Shown here piece by piece: positions 3,001 through 39,500 of a stretch of 64,000 nucleotides of DNA. Both the position numbers and the translations under genes were made by a program. The stretch comes from Escherichia phage UGJNEcP1, in sequence record OV754623, one strand, 5' to 3'. Position 1 is the stretch's first letter. Every line of letters begins with the position of its first letter. Below the pieces are notes generated by a model, which ran no database searches, was not told the DNA's origin, and saw only the letters and a list, made by a program, of their open reading frames with translations.

Positions 3001-3626
3001 TATAGTAACTCAAAGAATTCTTTGAGGCCTCGTATTGTGTGAACATGTGACGCCCCACATTTGGGACATTTAATAGGGGTTGCCAGATAAATTGATGGCG
3101 ATACCAAAAGATTTTTAATATTGATCATGTCATCTTCTGTTATAAGGCCGTAAAGGTCGTTTATTTCAGCTTCAGTTAAATCTTCAACAGGGATGGACTC
3201 TCCATTGACAAAAACGGCCTCAATACATGAAGCAATCATTAATGCGATATTTTTATCGTCAAATAATTTAGGTTGGCGGAACTTAATTTTAATACCACTA
3301 AACGAATACCAGGGATCGGCCTGTTCATCTAATTGAGTGTGCAATAAATTCATATAGACTTGAAATGAATGCCCACAGGAACAATTCCAGGTGTGTTCTT
3401 GATTCACTTCACCTAACGAATGTGCCCACAGATTTACCAACAATAGCTCGGCTTCTTGTTTAGTCAAGTTTTTAGCATTAGAGCAATTAGTGATAATATT
3501 GTTCACTGCTGATTCAATAGTACCGGTAGCCCGCGCACCTATGAGTCCTAAATATTCTTTTAAAGTAAAGGCTCTACAATTCACTTCTTTATCGCCTAAA
3601 CGTACGGTAAACGTATATTTGTACAT
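3000..3626 (-). CDS. 26: baseplate hub subunit gp26
   Basis: 208 aa as T4 gp26; divergent from gene 51 across a shared late-promoter region. Confidence 0.8.
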   Translation of the reverse strand: MYKYTFTVRLGDKEVNCRAFTLKEYLGLIGARATGTIESAVNNIITNCSNAKNLTKQEAELLLVNLWAHSLGEVNQEHTWNCSCGHSFQVYMNLLHTQLDEQADPWYSFSGIKIKFRQPKLFDDKNIALMIASCIEAVFVNGESIPVEDLTEAEINDLYGLITEDDMINIKNLLVSPSIYLATPIKCPKCGASHVHTIRGLKEFFELL

Positions 3627-3673: not shown

Positions 3674-4426
3674 ATGGCTAATATAATTCGTTGTAAATTA
3701 CCGGATGGTGTTCATCGTTTCAAGCCGTTCACCGTAGCGGATTATAGAGACTTTTTACTAGTTAGAAATGATATCGAACATCGTTCGCCACAAGAACAAA
3801 AAGAAATAATTGCCGATCTGATTGATGATTATTTTGGCGAGTACCCTAAAACATGGCAACCATTTATATTCCTGCAAGTTTTTGCAGGCTCTATAGGCAA
3901 AACAAAAGTTCCCGTTATTTTCACTTGCCCTAAATGCTCTAAAGAAAAAACTGCACCATTTGAGATATATCAAAAAGAACTAGTCGAACCTGAACTTGAT
4001 GTTGCTGGTATAAAAATACGTTTTTCTTTCCCTGAAAAGTTTTATGACAACAAGGCATTAATGATAAGTGAAAACATAAAAGAAATATATTATAATGATG
4101 AATGGTACCCGTGGAATGATTTGACTGAAGAGAACCAAATCCAAGTAATAGAAGCAATAGACATTGACTCGCTCGAGAAGGTTATTGCTTCTATGAACCC
4201 TATTAATTTGACCCTTAGATTAGGTTGTTGTGAACGTCATGTTAAAACATATACTGATATCTTAGAGGTTTTTAAATTGTTAGTTAACCCTGATGAGATT
4301 TTTACATTCTATCAGATAAACCATTCACTAGTAAAGAGTCAATACACGTTGGATTCTATTATGCAAATGATTCCTGTTGAACGTGGTATTGCTTTAACAT
4401 TAGTAGAAAAGGACCATAAAAAATGA
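3674..4426 (+). CDS. 51: baseplate hub assembly catalyst gp51
   Basis: 250 aa; AGGAG SD; TATAAATA 18 nt upstream; synteny. Confidence 0.8.
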
Positions 4427-5595
4427 CAGTATTCCAACGTCCAGGATATCCTAACTTAAGCGTTAAATTATACCAAGATTATTCGGCTTGGCAAGAAAAT
4501 AGATACGTTGAACTCGCAGCAACAATAACAACTTTAACCATGCGAGATTCGCTATATGGAAGAAATGAAGGGATTCTTCAATTTTATGACACTAAAAACA
4601 TCCACACTAAAATGGACGGTAGACAGATAGTTCAAATCTCTGTTTCAAATTCAAACACACCTCTCCAAGTTAGAACTCGAATTTATGGATGTAGACATTA
4701 TTCTGTGTCTGTGGACTCAAAAGGTGACAATATTATTGCAATTGAGCTTGGAACAATACATTCTATAGAGAACCTTAAATTTGGGCGACCATTCTTCCCA
4801 GACGCAGGAGAATCTATACGTGAAATGTTAGGTGTCATATATAAAGACCGTACATTAATTACTCCGCCAATAAACACTATTAATGCTTATGTTCCTGATA
4901 TTCCTTGGACAAGCACATTTGATGATTATTTGGCATATGTCAGAGAATTAGGACTTGCTACAGCGAGTGATAAGTTCGTATTCGTATGGCAAGATATTTT
5001 AGGCGTAAACATGATTGACTACGATACTCTTATTGGTCAGGAAGGCATTAAGATGATTGTAGGCGAGCCAAATACCGTAGGTCAGTATATTCAAGAGCTT
5101 GAGTATCCATTAGTATGGGATTTCACCTGGATGACTAAAGCTAACCAATTTACAAGAGACCCTATTAAAAACGCCACGATATTCGCCCATTCATTTTTAG
5201 ATACATCTATTCCGGTTATTGTTACAGGCGATGGTGATAATGCTATTGTTGTGTCAAGATCTGGTGGATATTCCGAAATGACCTATCGTAATGGATTTGA
5301 AGAAGCAAGTCGTCTTCAGACAATGGCTCAATATGACGGATATGCTAAATGCACTACTACAGGTAATTTTAACATAACGCCTGCTACTAAAATTATATTT
5401 GTTGACCAAAAGAACCAATTCAAATCCGAATTTTACGTAGATGAAGTTATTCATGAGTTATCAAATAACAACTCACAAACTCATCTGTACATGTTTACCA
5501 ACTCAATGGTGTTAGAACCTGTTAACCCAGTTAAGGTTAAAAATGAACTTAAATCTGATTCTACCTCTAAAGAAAATAATTCTACCACAGTCTAA
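4423..5595 (+). CDS. 27: baseplate hub subunit gp27
   Basis: 390 aa (T4 gp27 391 aa); synteny 51-27-28-29. Confidence 0.85.
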
Positions 5596-32105: not shown

Positions 32106-32509
32106 TACTTTTTAAAAGTTTTTTGCAAAAGTTTGATGATTTCGTCGACGTTGGTTTCATCTACGATACAATGGATTTTTGTTACACCTAAAGTTATACC
32201 TTCGTTAGTAGGTTGAGGCTTTTCTAAAGTTACCTCAGTAAAGTACTCAATAAAGTATTTGAACTCGTCAGGATAAATCTCAAAATAAGTTTCAATTTCA
32301 CCACCGGCAGAGCATACAGTACCATCTTCCATAGTTACACTTACTACGTTTGACGTATCGCTATCATAATCAGGTTCCATTCCGTTTACAACAAAACTAG
32401 GCCCGTGGAGTTCAATCAATTTTAACATCTTAGCGTTATTATGTGGTGCTTCTTGAACAAAGTCGTCTTTAAATAAAGGGTTAATGATATAAGATTTTCC
32501 GATTTCCAT
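32105..32509 (-). CDS. hypothetical protein (frd.3 position)
   Basis: ORF track; early-type promoter and GAGGAAA SD upstream. Confidence 0.5.
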   Translation of the reverse strand: MEIGKSYIINPLFKDDFVQEAPHNNAKMLKLIELHGPSFVVNGMEPDYDSDTSNVVSVTMEDGTVCSAGGEIETYFEIYPDEFKYFIEYFTEVTLEKPQPTNEGITLGVTKIHCIVDETNVDEIIKLLQKTFKK

Positions 32510-32538
32510 TTTGATTTCCTCATGTTGTTGATAGGTCT

Positions 32539-32567
32539 ATACTAACACATCCAGGGAAGAAGTAAAC
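32539..32567 (-). promoter_or_regulatory. T4 early-type promoter (GTTTAC-N17-TAGTAT)
   Basis: Upstream of the ORF starting at 32509; leader TATAGACCTATCAACAACATGAGGAAA. Confidence 0.5.
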
Positions 32568-32598
32568 AACTTTTTCGGCAATTTACAGATACTCAAAA

Positions 32599-32616
32599 GG
32601 GAGACCGAAGTCTCCC
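32599..32616 (-). terminator. intrinsic terminator after gene 32 (GGGAGAC-UUCG-GUCUCCC plus U-run)
   Basis: Identical hairpin to 17708..17725; TTTT follows on the minus strand. Confidence 0.6.
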
Positions 32617-32622
32617 GATTTA

Positions 32623-33525
32623 TTATAGACCAGCTAACAGGTCATCGAGGTCACCATCATCAGAGGATGAGGTAGAGCTCATGAAGTCATCTTCAGTTTT
32701 TGCAGAACTAAAGGCTTCCATGTCTTTATCAAAATCGTCAAGGTCAGAAGCAACTTTATCTGCAACAGAAGCTGCGGCAGCTGCTGCACCGCCCAGAGCG
32801 GCAGTACCAAGAACCTTAGCGAAAGATTCATTTAATTTTTCAAAGGATTTGAACTGGTCTTTAGCCGTCAAAGTGGTAAGGTCTACCATCTGGTCATATA
32901 GTTCTTTCTGGAATGCTTCATCATTAATACGAGGAATTTCAGATTGACCCAAGAATTTAGATTCGTCATAGTTGCTAAAACCAGAAACCTGCTTAGCTTT
33001 CAGAACGAAGTTAGCACCTTCAAATGGACAAGTAACATCAACTGGAGTTTCACCCATTTCGGTATCAACTGCAATCATTGCATTGATTTTGTCCCAAATC
33101 TTTTTACCGAAACGATATTTAAATACTTTACCTTCGTTATCTGGAGCTTGAGGGTCTTTAACAACCAGAATATTAGCCCAATAAGAAGTTTTACGTTTCA
33201 GTTGAGAATATTCAGTTTTGTTGGTATTGTACAGGTCATTTTTAATAATGTACTGACATACAGGACAAGAGTCGTAATCCCCATGTGTAGAAGAGCAATT
33301 TTCAATATACCATTTACCATTTTTCTTGAAACCGTGGTTAACAAGAATTGCAAATGGTAGTGCATCATCAGTTTTTGCTGGCAAGAAACGAATTACCGCT
33401 TGACCATTACCTGATGCATCTAGCTTCAGCTTCCATTCGCCTTTATCTTCTGAAGAGAAACCTTTGTTACCGTTCAGTTTAGCCATTTGAGCAGCGAGGT
33501 CAGCAGTAGATTTACGTTTAAACAT
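32623..33525 (-). CDS. 32: single-stranded DNA-binding protein gp32
   Basis: 300 aa; zinc-binding H-x12-C-x9-C-x2-C region and acidic C-terminus; near-identical to T4 gp32 as recalled. Confidence 0.95.
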
Positions 33526-33612
33526 TATATTTACCTTTATTTAGATTATTTAATTTATTTACAGTTGGTTGCTACGACACTTATACCTCGTAGCTGGTAT
33601 GTTTTATTTATA
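33526..33612 (-). promoter_or_regulatory. gene 32 leader: A/U-rich translational operator, upstream hairpin, and TATAAATA late promoter (33605..33612)
   Basis: mRNA-sense leader AAAUAAAUUAAAUAAUCUAAAUAAAGGUAAAUAUA before the AUG; hairpin GCUACGA...UCGUAGC further upstream. Confidence 0.5.
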
Positions 33613-33641
33613 AAGTAATTTTAACACGCAAGAAATAAAGC

Positions 33642-34295
33642 TTAATACTTACATGATTTGATTGTTTCTATGAACAATTTCTTAGCAGCATTTCCATCGA
33701 TTTGAAGTATTTTTCGATATGCCTTTAATTTGGTAGAATAATTTTGCCAGACTAAATTGTCGGTAAGTTCGTCATGCTTATCTATAATATTCAAGAATGA
33801 ATCTAACAACAAGAAGGTTTCAAATGAAATTATATTGCTTTGTAGCAATTTAAATATGTAGCTCGACTGAACTTTATTATTATAATCAAATATCTCTTGA
33901 AGCGCACTAACTTCCACTTTCTTACTGAAATAGTAGATGTTACGTACGTCTTCAGCAAACGTCTCCTTGGCTTGTTTGAGACGTCCAATGTATTCCCTAT
34001 AGAAAACTAATGCATCAGCGTCTGATATCTCACCAATCCATGCGTCTTGGTTAGCAACTAAGTTGCTTATGAATATCAAGGTGAGTTCCTTCAATTTATA
34101 TTTCTCTGCTAGTTTTTCAAAGAAATATTTATCTCGGCGTTTTTGATACGCATTATCCGAAACACGCATGCACCAGTTATATTTGATTACGTCATACCGA
34201 CCACCAAAATGGTTTTTGCACATCAAGTATAGTTTATATACTGATTTTCCATTAATATAACGTTCTCCATCAGGAGGCATGCGTATTTTAATCAT
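33642..34295 (-). CDS. 59: helicase loader gp59
   Basis: 217 aa as T4 gp59; near-identical segments (DVIKYNWCMRVSD, AWIGEISDADALVFYREYIGRLKQ). Confidence 0.9.
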   Translation of the reverse strand: MIKIRMPPDGERYINGKSVYKLYLMCKNHFGGRYDVIKYNWCMRVSDNAYQKRRDKYFFEKLAEKYKLKELTLIFISNLVANQDAWIGEISDADALVFYREYIGRLKQAKETFAEDVRNIYYFSKKVEVSALQEIFDYNNKVQSSYIFKLLQSNIISFETFLLLDSFLNIIDKHDELTDNLVWQNYSTKLKAYRKILQIDGNAAKKLFIETIKSCKY

Positions 34296-34971
34296 ATTTC
34301 CATCCGGGCCATTTTGAAGATTTAAGTCTATATGTAACTAAAGACGCAGAAATATTAAAAACATTTGAAACTTCTTTACACGAGGCGTATTTTATACCAT
34401 CAATAGTTATAGGTTTTTGTTTTTTAATAGTCCTTTCTCTAGAATGTGGTTTTGAATTTGCTATTCTAAGAGCTTCTTTAGTGGAATCAGGCATCGCCTT
34501 ATTCGTTTTTCTCCCTTTTCGGACTTTACTCAAGGCCAATTTGTGAGCTTCAGATAGTTTCTTACCCTTATTAGGGGACGGTATTTTTCTTTCTAGTCTT
34601 GTTTTAGATACTTTAGCCTTAGTCTCTTCAGATCTAGGTTTACCTAATTTAGAAAGTGAAATGGCCCTTTTAGCTTCATCACTTTGTTTTTTGCCAGGAC
34701 CACCTTTACCACCGGGAACTAAGTTATAAGTATCATCTCGCAAAACAAAATCTTCATTAACCAATTCTGCTTCTTTTTTATAGGCGTCCTTGTCATTATC
34801 ATATTCATAAAGAATTTCGGTATAAAAATTTTTTAGTCCATATTTAGCTTTGGCCGCTAATATAGCGCGGCCTGATCCAATATACCAATCTTTCTCTTTA
34901 TGTTTTTTATGTACGCCTATATAAATTTTACCATTTATTTTATTGGTAGTTTTATACACAACGTATTTCAT
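34288..34971 (-). CDS. GIY-YIG homing endonuclease (Seg/I-TevI-like) with NUMOD3 repeats and C-terminal HTH
   Basis: N-terminal YVVYKTTNKINGKIYIGVHK GIY-YIG motif; repeated basic NUMOD-like motifs; C-terminal helix-turn-helix-like segment. Confidence 0.8.
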   Translation of the reverse strand: MKYVVYKTTNKINGKIYIGVHKKHKEKDWYIGSGRAILAAKAKYGLKNFYTEILYEYDNDKDAYKKEAELVNEDFVLRDDTYNLVPGGKGGPGKKQSDEAKRAISLSKLGKPRSEETKAKVSKTRLERKIPSPNKGKKLSEAHKLALSKVRKGRKTNKAMPDSTKEALRIANSKPHSRERTIKKQKPITIDGIKYASCKEVSNVFNISASLVTYRLKSSKWPGWKYD

Positions 34972-35306
34972 AATAAGAAATCTAACGTATTAGTTTTTTC
35001 ACCACGAGCAACTGATGGGCGAAGCATGTTTTCGTCAATTGCTTCGCTTGTAATTTTTTCAACAATTCCTGTAGGAATAAATTTAGCAAATTGTGTTTCT
35101 GGAATAGAATTTTCTTCCAAGAAAGCAGTTGTTGCTTCTAAATAAGACATACCAAATTGTTCAACCATGGATTCAATAATGAATCCGTTTTCTTGCCGGT
35201 CAAGCAATTTAGCGATATCATCTTTATCGTGTTTTACTGCTAATTCTTGTTCAGATAAACCGGCCTCATCAACCGGTTTAATATCACTTAGTGAAAACTG
35301 TGTCAT
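34968..35306 (-). CDS. 33: late transcription accessory protein gp33
   Basis: 112 aa as T4 gp33; near-identical as recalled. Confidence 0.85.
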   Translation of the reverse strand: MTQFSLSDIKPVDEAGLSEQELAVKHDKDDIAKLLDRQENGFIIESMVEQFGMSYLEATTAFLEENSIPETQFAKFIPTGIVEKITSEAIDENMLRPSVARGEKTNTLDFLL

Positions 35307-35553
35307 AAAGCTCGACTACCTCTTCGTTTTCAGCTTCAAATTGGTCACGAGCATCTTTATGATAAAGAGCTAACAAACGATTAAACATTTTTCCATCAAC
35401 GCCAAGCTCTTCTTTAGCACGAGTACGAATGTCTTTAATCAGTTCATTATAACCAGAAATTTTAAGTTTGTTATCGGAAGCTTCCTTGACTAGTTTAGCC
35501 AGTTCTTCACCATGCACATCTTGATTAAATTCAACTGCTTCTTTCTTAGCCAT
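35284..35553 (-). CDS. dsbA: double-stranded DNA-binding protein DsbA
   Basis: ORF 35284..35571 trimmed to Met 7 (GAGGT SD), giving 89 aa as T4 DsbA. Confidence 0.75.
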   Translation of the reverse strand: MAKKEAVEFNQDVHGEELAKLVKEASDNKLKISGYNELIKDIRTRAKEELGVDGKMFNRLLALYHKDARDQFEAENEEVVELYDTVFTK

Positions 35554-35560
35554 GTTTACC

Positions 35561-36478
35561 TCAGAATTCATTAATTACACTTGTTAATTTAGAAAGACCA
35601 GATTTTACAAAATATGAATAAATCTTGCCTTTAGGTTGTTGTTTATATGAGTTATAATACTCTATAATGGTTGAAGCAATATTATCAGGGATATAATCAA
35701 AATCAATGAGAACCAAATTTTCTTGATACCGTTTATATTCTTCTGCACTTAATAATACTTCAGCTTGAGAACGGTCGTTAGCAATTGCTTCAATAATTGA
35801 TGTTTTCATGCTCGGAGTTCGTTCACCTTCAACTCGAGTAAACCAGAAGTCACCACGAACTCGAACAGATGCGACACCATCCTTACGGTCACCTTTAAGA
35901 ATTTTAGTCATGCAATCAATTTCAGCAGAACCATTCTTAATTTTAACCCATTTTTTCTGTGGTGGCGACCACTGTTTAACGTTAGGATATTTGTGTAATT
36001 GTGTAAAGTCACCATCTGATGCAACAATACATACCTTATGTCCAGCTAATGACAAATATTTGGTTAATACACCAATATGGTCATCCGCTTCATACTTGTC
36101 AATATCCATTACAACGTATGGCATGTATTTCTTAATCTCATCAACAACTTGATGGAGTGCAGTAAAATATCCTTCCCAATCCCACTTTGAAGCTTCACGA
36201 TCGGTTTTACGATTTTTCTTGTAATAGTAAGCAAAGTCACGTCGCCAATAACCTGAAGTAGCATTATCCATACACAATACAAATTTTGTATAGCCTTGCT
36301 TACGGAACATCACTACGTTTTTACGAATTGAATTCAAGATTACATGGCGAACCATCGGAACAGTAATTTTATCGCCGTCTTCAAAGTTGTTTAATGCAGC
36401 TGCCAATGCAATGTTACTAAAGTCGGCAAGTGCAATACCTTCTTTGTAATCTTCATCCAACATCATTTCTAAATCCAT
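35561..36478 (-). CDS. rnh: RNase H (5'-3' exonuclease / flap endonuclease)
   Basis: 305 aa as T4 RNase H; near-identical segments (KYEADDHIGVL, SDGDFTQLHKYPNVKQWSP). Confidence 0.9.
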   Translation of the reverse strand: MDLEMMLDEDYKEGIALADFSNIALAAALNNFEDGDKITVPMVRHVILNSIRKNVVMFRKQGYTKFVLCMDNATSGYWRRDFAYYYKKNRKTDREASKWDWEGYFTALHQVVDEIKKYMPYVVMDIDKYEADDHIGVLTKYLSLAGHKVCIVASDGDFTQLHKYPNVKQWSPPQKKWVKIKNGSAEIDCMTKILKGDRKDGVASVRVRGDFWFTRVEGERTPSMKTSIIEAIANDRSQAEVLLSAEEYKRYQENLVLIDFDYIPDNIASTIIEYYNSYKQQPKGKIYSYFVKSGLSKLTSVINEF

Positions 36479-36510
36479 ATGAACCTCTTGTTCAGTTAGT
36501 CAACTTGACT

Positions 36511-36540
36511 ATAGTAACACACTCATTTGAAAGCGTAAAC
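36511..36540 (-). promoter_or_regulatory. T4 early-type promoter (GTTTAC-N18-TACTAT) upstream of rnh
   Basis: In the divergent rnh / gene 34 intergenic region. Confidence 0.5.
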
Positions 36541-36543
36541 TGG

Positions 36544-36551
36544 TATAAATA
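36544..36551 (+). promoter_or_regulatory. late promoter TATAAATA for gene 34
   Basis: Exact TATAAATA about 30 nt before the gene 34 ATG. Confidence 0.55.
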
Positions 36552-36581
36552 AGTATTATTGAAACAATAAAGGAAAAACGA

Positions 36582-39500
36582 ATGGCCGACATCAAACGTA
36601 AGTTCAGAGCCGAAGACGGTCTGGACGCCGGTGGCGACAAGATTGTTAACGTAGCATTAGCCGACCGTACAGTAGGTACAGATGGCGTAAACGTTGACTT
36701 CCTGGTACAAGAAAACACCGTTCAAGTATATGATTCTACGCGTGGATATAACAAAGGATTTGTTGTTCTTTATGACAACCGTTTATATCAAGCAATAAAT
36801 GATATCGTGTCTCCTTCAGGGGCATTTAACCTTTTACAATGGCGTGCAGTTCGTACCGATGCACAATGGATAACTGTCGCTTCTGGGACTTATCAACTTT
36901 CTTCAGGTGAATCTATTTCGGTTAACACTGGTGCTGGCAATGATATGGTTTTCACATTGCCAAATGCGCCGGTTGATGGTGATACTGTTGTTTTGGCTGA
37001 TATTGGTGGAAGAACCGGGACAGTTAAAGTACAGATTAACGCGTCTGTGCAGAGTATTTTAAACTTTAGAGGTGAACAAGTTCGTACAGTTTTAATGACG
37101 CGCCCACGTTCACAACTATTGTTTGTGTTTAGTAATCGCTTGTGGCAGATGTATATCATTGATTATGGTAAAGAATCAATCACTGTTACACCTGCGACAC
37201 CATATCAAGCACAAGCAAATGATTTTATCGTTCGTCGTTTTACTAGTGCAGCACCAATCAACATTACACTTCCACGTAATGCTAACAATGGCGATATAAT
37301 CACCCTAGTCGATTTAGATAAATTAAACCCACTGTATCATACAATTGTTAAAACATTTGATGATACAACGTCTATTGGTGAAGTCGGGACTCATATTGCC
37401 GAAGGCAGAAATGACTCTGACGCGTTTTTTGTTTTTGATGCTTCAAATAGTTTATGGCGTATATGGGAAGGCGACCAGAAATCGCGTCTTCGTATTATCC
37501 GTGCGGATTCAAATATTCGTCCAAATGAAGAAGTTCTTATTTTTGGCACAAATAACGCTACATCCGGAACTATTAATCTTACGCTGCCTACAGGAATTTT
37601 GAGTGGTGACACTGTTAAAATTTCAATGAACTACATGCGTAAAGGCCAAACAGTAAAAATTAAAGCTGCCGAAGGTGATACAATTGCTTCTTCTGTTGCA
37701 TTGCTTCAGTTCCCTAAACGTTCTGAATATCCACCTGATGCTCAATGGGTCTCTGTTACTGAACTAGAATTCAATGGCACTACTTCGTATGTTCCTGTAT
37801 TAGAATTAGCATATATTGAAGATACCGATTCCGACACTCATTATTGGGTTGTGCAACAGAATGTCCCTACGGTAGAACGTGTTGATGCTGGAACTGATGC
37901 TACACGAGCTCGTTTAGGTGTTATTGCTCTTGCTACTCAAGCGCAAGCAAATGTTGATTTAGAGAATACTCCAGCTAAAGAAGTGGCTATTACTCCTGAA
38001 ACGTTGGCAAATCGTACAGCAACTGAAGCTCGACGTGGTATCGCTAAAATTGCTACAACAGCACAAGTTAACCAGAATTCCACAGCAACATTTGTGGACG
38101 ATACTATTGTTACGCCTAAAAAACTAAATGAGCGTACAGCAACTGAAACTCGTCGTGGTCTTGCTGAAATTGCTACTCAGGCTGAAACCGATGCTGGTCT
38201 TGACGACACAACGATTATTACACCTAAGAAATTGCAGGCACGTCAGGGTTCTGAAACACTATCTGGTATAGTTAAATATGTATCAACTACTTCTGCTACT
38301 CCTGCTGAAACTCGTGGGGCAGCAGGCACTAACGTTTATAATAAAACCGTAAATAATTTAACTATTTCCCCTAAAGCCCTTGACCAATATAAAGCAACTT
38401 ATGCTCAACAAGGTGCAGTAATTTTAGCTGTTGATAGTGAAGTAATTGCTGGACAATCTCAAGCAGGTTATTCTCACGCTGTAGTAACTCCTGAAACACT
38501 ACATAAGAAAACTTCTACTGATGGACGTATTGGTTTAATTGAAATTGCTACGCAAGCAGAAACTAATACTGGGACTGATTATACACGTGCAGTAACGCCT
38601 AAGACGTTAAATGATAGGAAAGCTACGGAAGGAATATCCGGCATAGCCGAACTTGCTACGCAAGTTGAATTTGATACTGGAACTGATGATACTCGTATCT
38701 CGACTCCACTGAAAATTAAAACTCATTTTGATTCTTCTGACCGTACCAGTGTTAATTCTGATTCCGGACTTATTGAAGAAGGAACCTTGTGGAACCATTA
38801 TACTCTTGATATTTCTAAAGCAAATGAAACACAACGTGGTACACTTCGCGTAGCGACCCAGGCAGAATCTAATGCAGGAACTTTAGATGATGTTCTTATT
38901 ACTCCTAAAAAGCTTTTAGGGACTAAGTCCACTGAAACGTCTGAAGGCGTAATTAAGGTTGCTACTCGGGCTGAAACTGTAACAGGAACTTCTGCTAATA
39001 CTGCTGTATCTCCTAAGAATTTAAAATGGATTGTCCAGAACGAACCAACATGGGCTGCTACTACGGCAATTCGCGGATTCGTTAAAACTTCATCCGGTTC
39101 TATTACATTTGTTGGTAATGATACAGTTGGTTCAACACAACCTTTAGAATCATATGAGAAAAATAGCTATGCAGTATCACCATATGAATTAAACCGTGTA
39201 CTTGCTAACTATTTACCATTAAAAGCAAAAGCTGCTGACGCAAATTTATTAGATGGCCTAGATTCATCTCAGTTCATTCGTAGGGACATTGCACAGACGG
39301 TTAATGGTTCACTAACCTTAACCCAACAAACGAATCTGAGTGGCCCTCTTGTATCATCTAGTACCGCTACGTTTGGTGGATCAGTTTCGGCAAATAGTAC
39401 ATTAACTATTTCTAATACTGGAACGGCAACTCGTCTGATTTTTGAAAAAGGACCTCAGACTGGAACTAACCCAGTACAGACGATGACTATCAGAGTTTGG

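Follow-up and report, generated by a model that had tools for sequence, protein, structure and literature searches.

What is the open reading frame (ORF) that separates genes 33 and 59 in Escherichia phage UGJNEcP1, how did it come to lie there, and does it still behave as a mobile gene? The DNA in which these questions arise is a stretch of 64,000 nucleotides (sequence record OV754623), hereafter the window, and the ORF occupies positions 34288..34971 of its minus strand, begins with ATG and codes for 227 amino acids (aa). A preliminary description, based on the letters of the window, had seen in it a GIY-YIG homing endonuclease gene, apparently inserted independently of the T4 gene segG, that could drive local marker exclusion. 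We hold with good confidence that the gene encodes a functional free-standing GIY-YIG homing endonuclease of the I-TevI/Seg type, belonging to a 33/59-junction lineage of T4-like enterobacterial phages. Many GenBank records already label it 'homing endonuclease' or 'Seg-like', and it is not new to databases.

Protein family and fold

The family membership of the protein is established along its whole length. The NCBIfam model TIGR01453 ('group I intron endonuclease') covers aa 4-225, nearly end to end, with 74 bits against a curated cutoff of 56.05, PHROG 314 ('homing endonuclease') matches with an E-value of 2.3e-56, and the corresponding gene of record OV877511.1 is annotated 'homing endonuclease'. 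A BLASTP comparison with I-TevI, the endonuclease of the T4 td intron, gave a full-length colinear alignment at 27% identity (E 3e-10), from an N-terminal GIY-YIG domain through a long linker to a C-terminal helix-turn-helix (HTH). The GIY-YIG motif, the NUMOD-like basic repeats and the C-terminal HTH that the preliminary description had read from the translation were all recovered by the profile and structure searches.

The N-terminal GIY-YIG catalytic domain (aa 1 to about 89; 34705..34971, minus strand) carries both tyrosines of the motif (VVY6 ... Y17-I-G19). In an alignment of 30 homologs, Y6, Y17, G19, H21, E67 and N83 are invariant, and the catalytic Tyr, Glu and Asn are kept in orthologs down to 37% identity. 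We take E67 to be the equivalent of the catalytic Glu (E75 of I-TevI) and N83 that of the structural Asn (N90 of I-TevI); by motif and position, Y82-N83 in 'TYNL' corresponds to 'GYNI' of I-TevI, the BLASTP alignment being one residue off-register there. An AlphaFold model built on the homolog alignment has a mean predicted local distance difference test score (pLDDT) of 85, rising above 90 over aa 1-20 and 41-80. Its top Foldseek matches in the PDB are the DNA-binding domain (1i3j) and the catalytic domain (1mk0 and 1ln0) of I-TevI, with target-normalised template modelling scores of 0.67 for 1mk0 and 0.60-0.65 for 1ln0 and Foldseek probabilities of 0.99-1.0. The relation of the catalytic domain came from the structure model and Foldseek, phmmer against the PDB sequences having returned the DNA-binding domain only (1i3j_A).

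The second part is a basic linker with NUMOD3-type helices (34426..34704, minus strand), in which Lys and Arg make up 30% of the residues. PF07460 (NUMOD3) aligns with aa 93-122 (E 2.5e-5; 24.6 bits, cutoff 20.4), and a repeat scan, together with the helices of the model, picks out helices of the pattern S-[DE]-E-x-K-x-x-h-S, three of them clear, with starts at aa 97, 114 and 140, and a fourth, near aa 162, weaker; shorter orthologs of 197-204 aa lack one linker module. Unlike I-TevI, the protein has these helices and no linker zinc finger, since it contains a single Cys in all. The C-terminal HTH DNA-binding domain of I-TevI type (aa ~183-226; 34291..34425, minus strand) is recognised by PF20987 (I-TevI_DNA-bd; aa 183-226, E 3.4e-12, 46.5 bits, cutoff 27), as well as by phmmer and Foldseek through 1i3j_A.

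Insertion at the 33/59 overlap and expression signals

Read along the minus strand, the local order is rnh, dsbA, 33, the endonuclease ORF, 59 and 32, the neighbours being confirmed by Pfam. As the preliminary description had stated, the ORF overlaps the genes on either side: by 4 nucleotides (nt), ATGA, with gene 33 upstream (late-transcription coactivator; 34968..35306, minus strand; PF16805), and by 8 nt, ATGATTAA, with gene 59 downstream (helicase loader and candidate target gene; 33642..34295, minus strand; PF08993 and PF08994).

Comparison with phages that have an empty site reveals how the gene was accommodated. Their 33/59 overlap reads ...TTATT[ATGA]TTAAAATACGC, and the window reads ...TTATT[ATGA]AATACG...(endonuclease)...GGATGGAAAT[ATGA]TTAAAATACGC. 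The cassette amounts to 676 base pairs (bp) added exactly at the ATGA that serves as stop of 33 and start of 59 in the empty site. Because it sits at that ATGA, the endonuclease ATG uses the former 33-stop/59-start overlap, and at this upstream junction (34968..34971, minus strand) the TGA stop of gene 33 now overlaps the endonuclease start. At the downstream junction, ATGATTAA (34288..34295, minus strand), sequence comparison places the gene 59 start within the last endonuclease codons (tAT GAT TAA). The endonuclease stop codon is built from the first bases of gene 59, and the 3' end of the insert re-creates the ATGA(TTAA) start context of gene 59. Just upstream of that start, inside the insert, lies the Shine-Dalgarno-like GGATGGA, where a ribosome-binding site is annotated in the record of phage 55.

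In most orthologs, namely those of Dhakavirus and most metagenomic ones, the endonuclease itself begins with ATGATTAA (M-I-K), and because ATGATTAA also begins gene 59, the insert is framed there by an 8-bp direct repeat. Duplication of the gene 59 start may have given the endonuclease its N-terminus. In the Mosigvirus copy the Ile codon is gone, and of the repeat only ATGA remains.

Signals of independent expression were sought around the cassette. No T4-type late promoter (TATAAATA) occurs between 33612 and 36544, the nearest such motifs being at 33605-33612 (minus strand), upstream of gene 32, and at 36544 (gene 34). Sigma-70-like sites are not enriched (18 against 12.9 ± 3.8 in shuffled sequences), no Rfam family matches 32500-36600 at E-values up to 1, and the fold at the endonuclease start equals that of shuffled sequences (z 0.03), giving no sign of a hairpin that would sequester the ribosome-binding site. 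Since no promoter or other expression signal was found, the gene looks like a promoter-less cassette carried on an existing polycistronic message, a design described for segC, segF, segG and several mob genes (PMC2988022). I-TevI differs on these aspects: it is encoded in an intron and has a promoter of its own as well as a hairpin that occludes its ribosome-binding site. An intron-encoded endonuclease is ruled out at this locus by the lack of an Rfam match and by the intact flanking genes 33 and 59.

Distribution of the gene

Escherichia phage UGJNEcP2 (OV877511.1), which belongs to Mosigvirus (Tevenvirinae), has nearly the same sequence as the window over 2.2 kb around the ORF. A single base (A vs G) differs over the 8.2 kb compared; it falls at 34399, at a third codon position within the endonuclease ORF, and is synonymous (100% protein identity by tblastn).

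A survey of Mosigvirus yielded 154 records matching the 33/59 junction, 28 with the gene and 125 with a clean, uninterrupted 33/59 overlap, so that carriers make up about 18%. After removal of RefSeq duplicates, the 28 carrier records represent about 25 distinct phages, and their proteins are 94.7-100% identical. Within Dhakavirus, three carriers (IME540, AnYang and LQ5) stand among about 45 records, the rest being cleanly without the 679 bp. The presence/absence polymorphism that the preliminary description had proposed to look for is real, and the gene is far from being conserved in all relatives.

Beyond Mosigvirus, the 33/59 slot is occupied by more distant orthologs: those of the three Dhakavirus phages (57% protein identity to the window), of the Serratia phages CHI14, CBH8 and LC53 and the Kosakonia phage Kc304 (50-52%), of the Enterobacter phage KMB20 (48%), and of the metagenomic contigs with the proteins P0002, P0006, P0008 and P0012 (47-58%). 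Each of these four metagenomic orthologs shares 4 nt with the gene 33 stop at its start and overlaps gene 59 at its end. The slot is filled in at least five phage groups in total, and sequence comparison indicates that this lineage specifically occupies the gene 33/gene 59 junction of T4-like enterobacterial phages in several genera. In T4, genes 59 and 33 overlap directly with nothing inserted, and segG lies between 32 and 59, just as the preliminary description had it; its view of an independent insertion is supported. A relocated SegG is ruled out by the BLASTP comparison, which gave no significant similarity (E 0.3), and by the location, 33/59 vs 32/59.

A presence-tracking patch in gene 59

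Where does the endonuclease act? A scan of IMG/VR with gp59 gave one close Mosigvirus locus, and population analysis was hence based on GenBank phage records, the region from rnh to 32 being aligned for 21 Mosigvirus loci, 10 with the gene and 11 without it. Association with the presence of the gene is strikingly localized. In the 100-bp bin 34179-34278, 9 of the 10 variable sites are associated with it, against 0 of the other ~336 variable columns, and the fixation index (Fst) is about 0.68 at the 5' end of gene 59 (nt ~1-140) against about 0 elsewhere. The associated single-nucleotide polymorphisms define a patch of 66 bp (34204..34269, minus strand; codons ~9-31), confined to gene 59 nt ~27-92, with a Mosigvirus core at nt 60-92 (34204-34236).

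All 10 carriers read TATATAAACTATACTTGATGTGCAAAAACCAyTTTGGTGG, where gp59 has ...K27 N28 H F G31 G, whereas 9 of 11 non-carriers read TATACAAAC...GCAAACAACATTTTAATGG, where gp59 has K Q H F N G. The derived core is present in 10/10 carriers vs 2/11 non-carriers (Fisher p 2e-4), with four core positions derived in every carrier. The carrier substitutions are TAC>TAT, CAA>AAC (Q28N) and AAT>GGT (N31G), the last two being double-hit codons in a protein whose ratio of non-synonymous to synonymous polymorphism (pN/pS) is otherwise 0.03-0.06. Gly at gp59 position 31 is absent from the other genera sampled, T4 and relatives having KQHMNG or similar. The sites nearer the junction, 34248 and 34269, are still polymorphic among carriers; the core, which lies farther away, is fixed, and this is the opposite of a plain decay of linkage.

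A comparison of 3 carriers with 4 non-carriers over 1.8 kb in Dhakavirus uncovered 10 fixed differences, seven of them in gene 59 (nt 15, 57, 63, 73-75 and 78). The carriers have undergone ATG>CAA (M25Q), a codon change at all three bases, in an interval that overlaps the Mosigvirus core. With so few loci, and with three carriers that are closely related to one another, this supports the candidate target and is not decisive.

We suggest that the gene 59 patch may be both target and immunity site, or else a co-conversion tract. The latter belongs to the main alternative for this step, which we judge less likely: the gene would encode a real homing endonuclease whose recognition or cleavage site is not the patch but lies at the 33/59 junction or in gene 33, near its 3' end, or else at a greater distance, SegG being the precedent, and the patch would have hitchhiked along. 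Insertion at the ATGA overlap by itself breaks any site that spans the junction, gene 33 holds two of the Dhakavirus fixed differences, 24 and 36 bp upstream, and SegG cuts at a distance from its own gene (PMC2988022). Set against this alternative are the greater distance of the carrier-fixed sites from the junction compared with the variable 34248 and 34269, the clustering of double- and triple-hit codons in a highly constrained gp59, and the recurrence of the changes in the same ~35 bp in two genera with endonucleases of only 57% identity.

Going further, we would tentatively propose, with a little less than even confidence, that the 33/59 lineage has repeatedly forced replacements in the N-terminal domain of gp59, a conserved part of this essential helicase loader (Q28N and N31G in Mosigvirus, M25Q in Dhakavirus), the target lying within codons ~19-31. 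The only non-synonymous hotspot of gp59 would then be due to selfish cleavage and not to adaptation to the host, and the three coexisting allele classes (carrier/derived, empty/ancestral and empty/derived) would be a live snapshot of the homing cycle, running in parallel in several genera.

Selection and mobility

Does the gene still move, and is it maintained as a functional gene? When loci are clustered by rnh, by dsbA with 33, by the distal part of 59 or by 32, carriers are intermingled with non-carriers, with Fst about 0; therefore the gene moves relative to its flanks. The intact copies are under purifying selection: over nine of them, pN/pS is 0.11 and synonymous polymorphism (pS) 0.119, against 0.126 for gene 59 and 0.112 for rnh. 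The copy of AV116 bears a +1 frameshift, a one-base insertion near window position 34665, with a stop at codon 107; it reflects either decay of the gene or an error of sequencing, and one decayed copy fits a homing cycle. The AV116 record annotates no more than the C-terminal 138 codons, under the name 'hypothetical protein'.

Several points weigh against an active endonuclease directed at gene 59. On the protein side, PF19835 (SegE_GIY-YIG) matches below threshold (E 1.5e-4; 22.4 bits, cutoff 25) and PF01541, recorded for the orthologs P0004, P0011-12 and P0014-16, does not match the window protein. The family alignment shows no evident invariant counterpart of R27 of I-TevI, the Arg that opens helix 1: R35 opens a predicted helix (35-44) and varies among orthologs (R/K/A/S/T), and K43 and H21 are invariant. 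On the target side, the case is purely population-genetic, drawn from 10+11 Mosigvirus and 3+4 Dhakavirus loci. Towards its 3' end, gene 33 hardly varies at all, which leaves too little variation to judge linkage on that side. About 21 of the 125 empty-site records, 13 of them near-identical LF82 isolates, are at most 3 mismatches from the AV111-type sequence and so cannot hold the full four-base susceptible core; these empty sites with an 'immune' core and no gene would fit resistant-empty alleles and also plain recombination. In the literature, we found neither a cleavage or homing assay for this endonuclease or any ortholog nor a paper characterising an endonuclease at 33/59.

Could the gene be a relic, inactive or in decay, that has stopped homing, is passively inherited and is being lost by deletion, with a patch that reflects shared segment ancestry? 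The AV116 frameshift, the presence of the gene in only about 18% of Mosigvirus records, the weak Pfam GIY-YIG scores and the want of an obvious conserved Arg could all be read in this way. Purifying selection and distribution make such a relic unlikely, and we consider it quite improbable: synonymous diversity matches that of the neighbouring essential genes, the catalytic residues are invariant among distant orthologs, carriers are scattered over the clusters of the flanking genes, and many precise losses between 4-bp repeats, in a slot filled in so many phage groups, would be less parsimonious than gain by homing.

A different kind of maintenance would be benefit to the phage, the protein being kept mainly for excluding co-infecting relatives, for recombination or amplification near the replication genes, or as a DNA-binding regulator in the manner of the I-TevI autorepressor. 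Purifying selection looks long-standing and deep orthologs share one site, I-TevI doubles as a repressor (PMC2988022), and SegB reportedly promotes amplification and in this way helps to evade immunity (PMC13096335). The gene is missing, however, from most isolates of Mosigvirus and Dhakavirus, nothing at the locus indicates a cargo or a defence-related partner, and no operator-like copy of the patch was seen, none having been specifically searched for. We regard a protein kept mainly in this role as very improbable.

Proposed homing route

For an active homing endonuclease, the expression route, cleavage and its exact site, and the bias in inheritance can be pictured by analogy with SegF, SegG and I-TevI (PMC2988022). 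The endonuclease would be translated from an rnh-dsbA-33-59 polycistronic message, coupled translationally to gene 33. When a carrier and a phage without the gene infect the same cell, the HTH and NUMOD3 helices of the endonuclease would bind near the beginning of gene 59 (within ~100 bp, at about nt 55-95), and the tethered GIY-YIG domain would cut near the bound site. By-eye inspection of the patch found no convincing CNNNG cleavage motif like that of I-TevI, and no cut position is proposed. Recombination-dependent repair off the carrier genome would then copy in the endonuclease gene with a short flanking tract. Carriers may escape self-cleavage through the patch substitutions (TAC>TAT, Q28N and N31G in Mosigvirus, M25Q in Dhakavirus). 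The outcome would be marker exclusion localized to the surroundings of the 33/59 junction, like that of T4 SegF and SegG; the population-genetic footprints are consistent with this claim of the preliminary description.

Comparison with known homing endonucleases

A published table of all fifteen T4 homing endonucleases places none at 33/59 (PMC2988022). The nearest in setting is SegG (gene 32.1), which cleaves gene 32 of T2 and is, like the gene of the window, a free-standing, promoter-less GIY-YIG cassette adjoining gene 59 in the replication/late-transcription cluster (PMC2988022). Localized marker exclusion is the expected outcome for both. The two differ in that the window gene stands on the other side of gene 59 and that its probable target would be gene 59, not gene 32.

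The closest T4 paralog is SegD, which tblastn aligns over 98% of the length at about 33.5% identity. The equivalent match in Yersinia phage PST is annotated segD, and both proteins belong to the same Seg-type GIY-YIG subfamily. SegD lies between 23 and 24, and an identity of 33% makes it a paralog and no ortholog; a review table gives 'ND' for its activity and no known target (PMC2988022). SegF, located between soc and 56, provides the 'intronless homing' model, in which the adjoining essential gene of an endonuclease-less relative (gene 56) is cut and a short tract is converted (PMC2988022). It differs from the window gene in being drawn as a GIY-YIG/HNH hybrid (PMC2988022), in its unrelated locus and target, and in having been characterised experimentally.

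Orthologs in the same slot have been deposited in GenBank under several names, for example AIM50821 of Shf125875 ('SegH; similar to RB3 segH') and that of AV109 ('putative Seg-like homing DNA endonuclease'). These labels, including 'SegH' of Shf125875, were assigned by similarity only. Going by the title of a 2005 paper from Sandegren et al., SegH reportedly replaces mobC/mobE genes, at a different locus.

Significance

The value for annotation is small, as this is a standard Seg-type homing endonuclease whose label is already in the records. New here are a lineage faithful to the 33/59 junction across genera and a named candidate target/immunity patch in gp59. The locus offers a clean natural system, with a precise insertion site, many sequenced carrier and empty genomes and two genera of easily grown coliphages. 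The candidate target of ~35 bp lies inside an essential replication gene, and the candidate immunity substitutions alter the protein. It would be a convenient case for the study of intronless homing, marker exclusion and the homing cycle. Homing at this junction could also explain the local mosaicism of 33/59/32 in therapeutic Mosigvirus and Dhakavirus phages, and the enzyme may possibly bring a new monomeric GIY-YIG specificity to nuclease engineering.

Additional observations

Many Dhakavirus phages carry a second ORF of ~205 aa between 59 and 32, with the SegG-like motif DDYFNLVYAGGG. It lies at 3845-4462 of the IME540 locus, downstream of gene 59 in L046, L048 and L050, and at 3346-4011 of L052; it is annotated 'similar to T4 SegG' in VR5 and is absent from JS98. 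IME540 and AnYang carry this SegG-like ORF together with the 33/59 endonuclease, so that gene 59 is flanked there by endonuclease genes on both sides.

In the IMG/VR genome IMGVR_UViG_2700989062_000001 (locus ~3001-3090), gene 59 seems frameshifted near codon 19-20 by an extra T in GTCTGTTGTAC. The position falls within the interval of the candidate target patch, and the frameshift may be an assembly error.

Record MZ501098.1 (phage PaulHMueller) is placed in Tequatrovirus by its taxonomy line, but its region from 32 to rnh is about 96-97% identical to Mosigvirus, and the label is probably out of date.

Gene 32 (32623-33525) and the spacer 33526-33641 form the most diverse part of the region in Mosigvirus, with a nucleotide diversity of about 0.055-0.061. 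In the gene 32 region, pN/pS is 0.12, at least two deeply divergent allele groups exist, and phage 55 shows a 15-codon length difference. The variation of gene 32 and the spacer is unlinked to the endonuclease.

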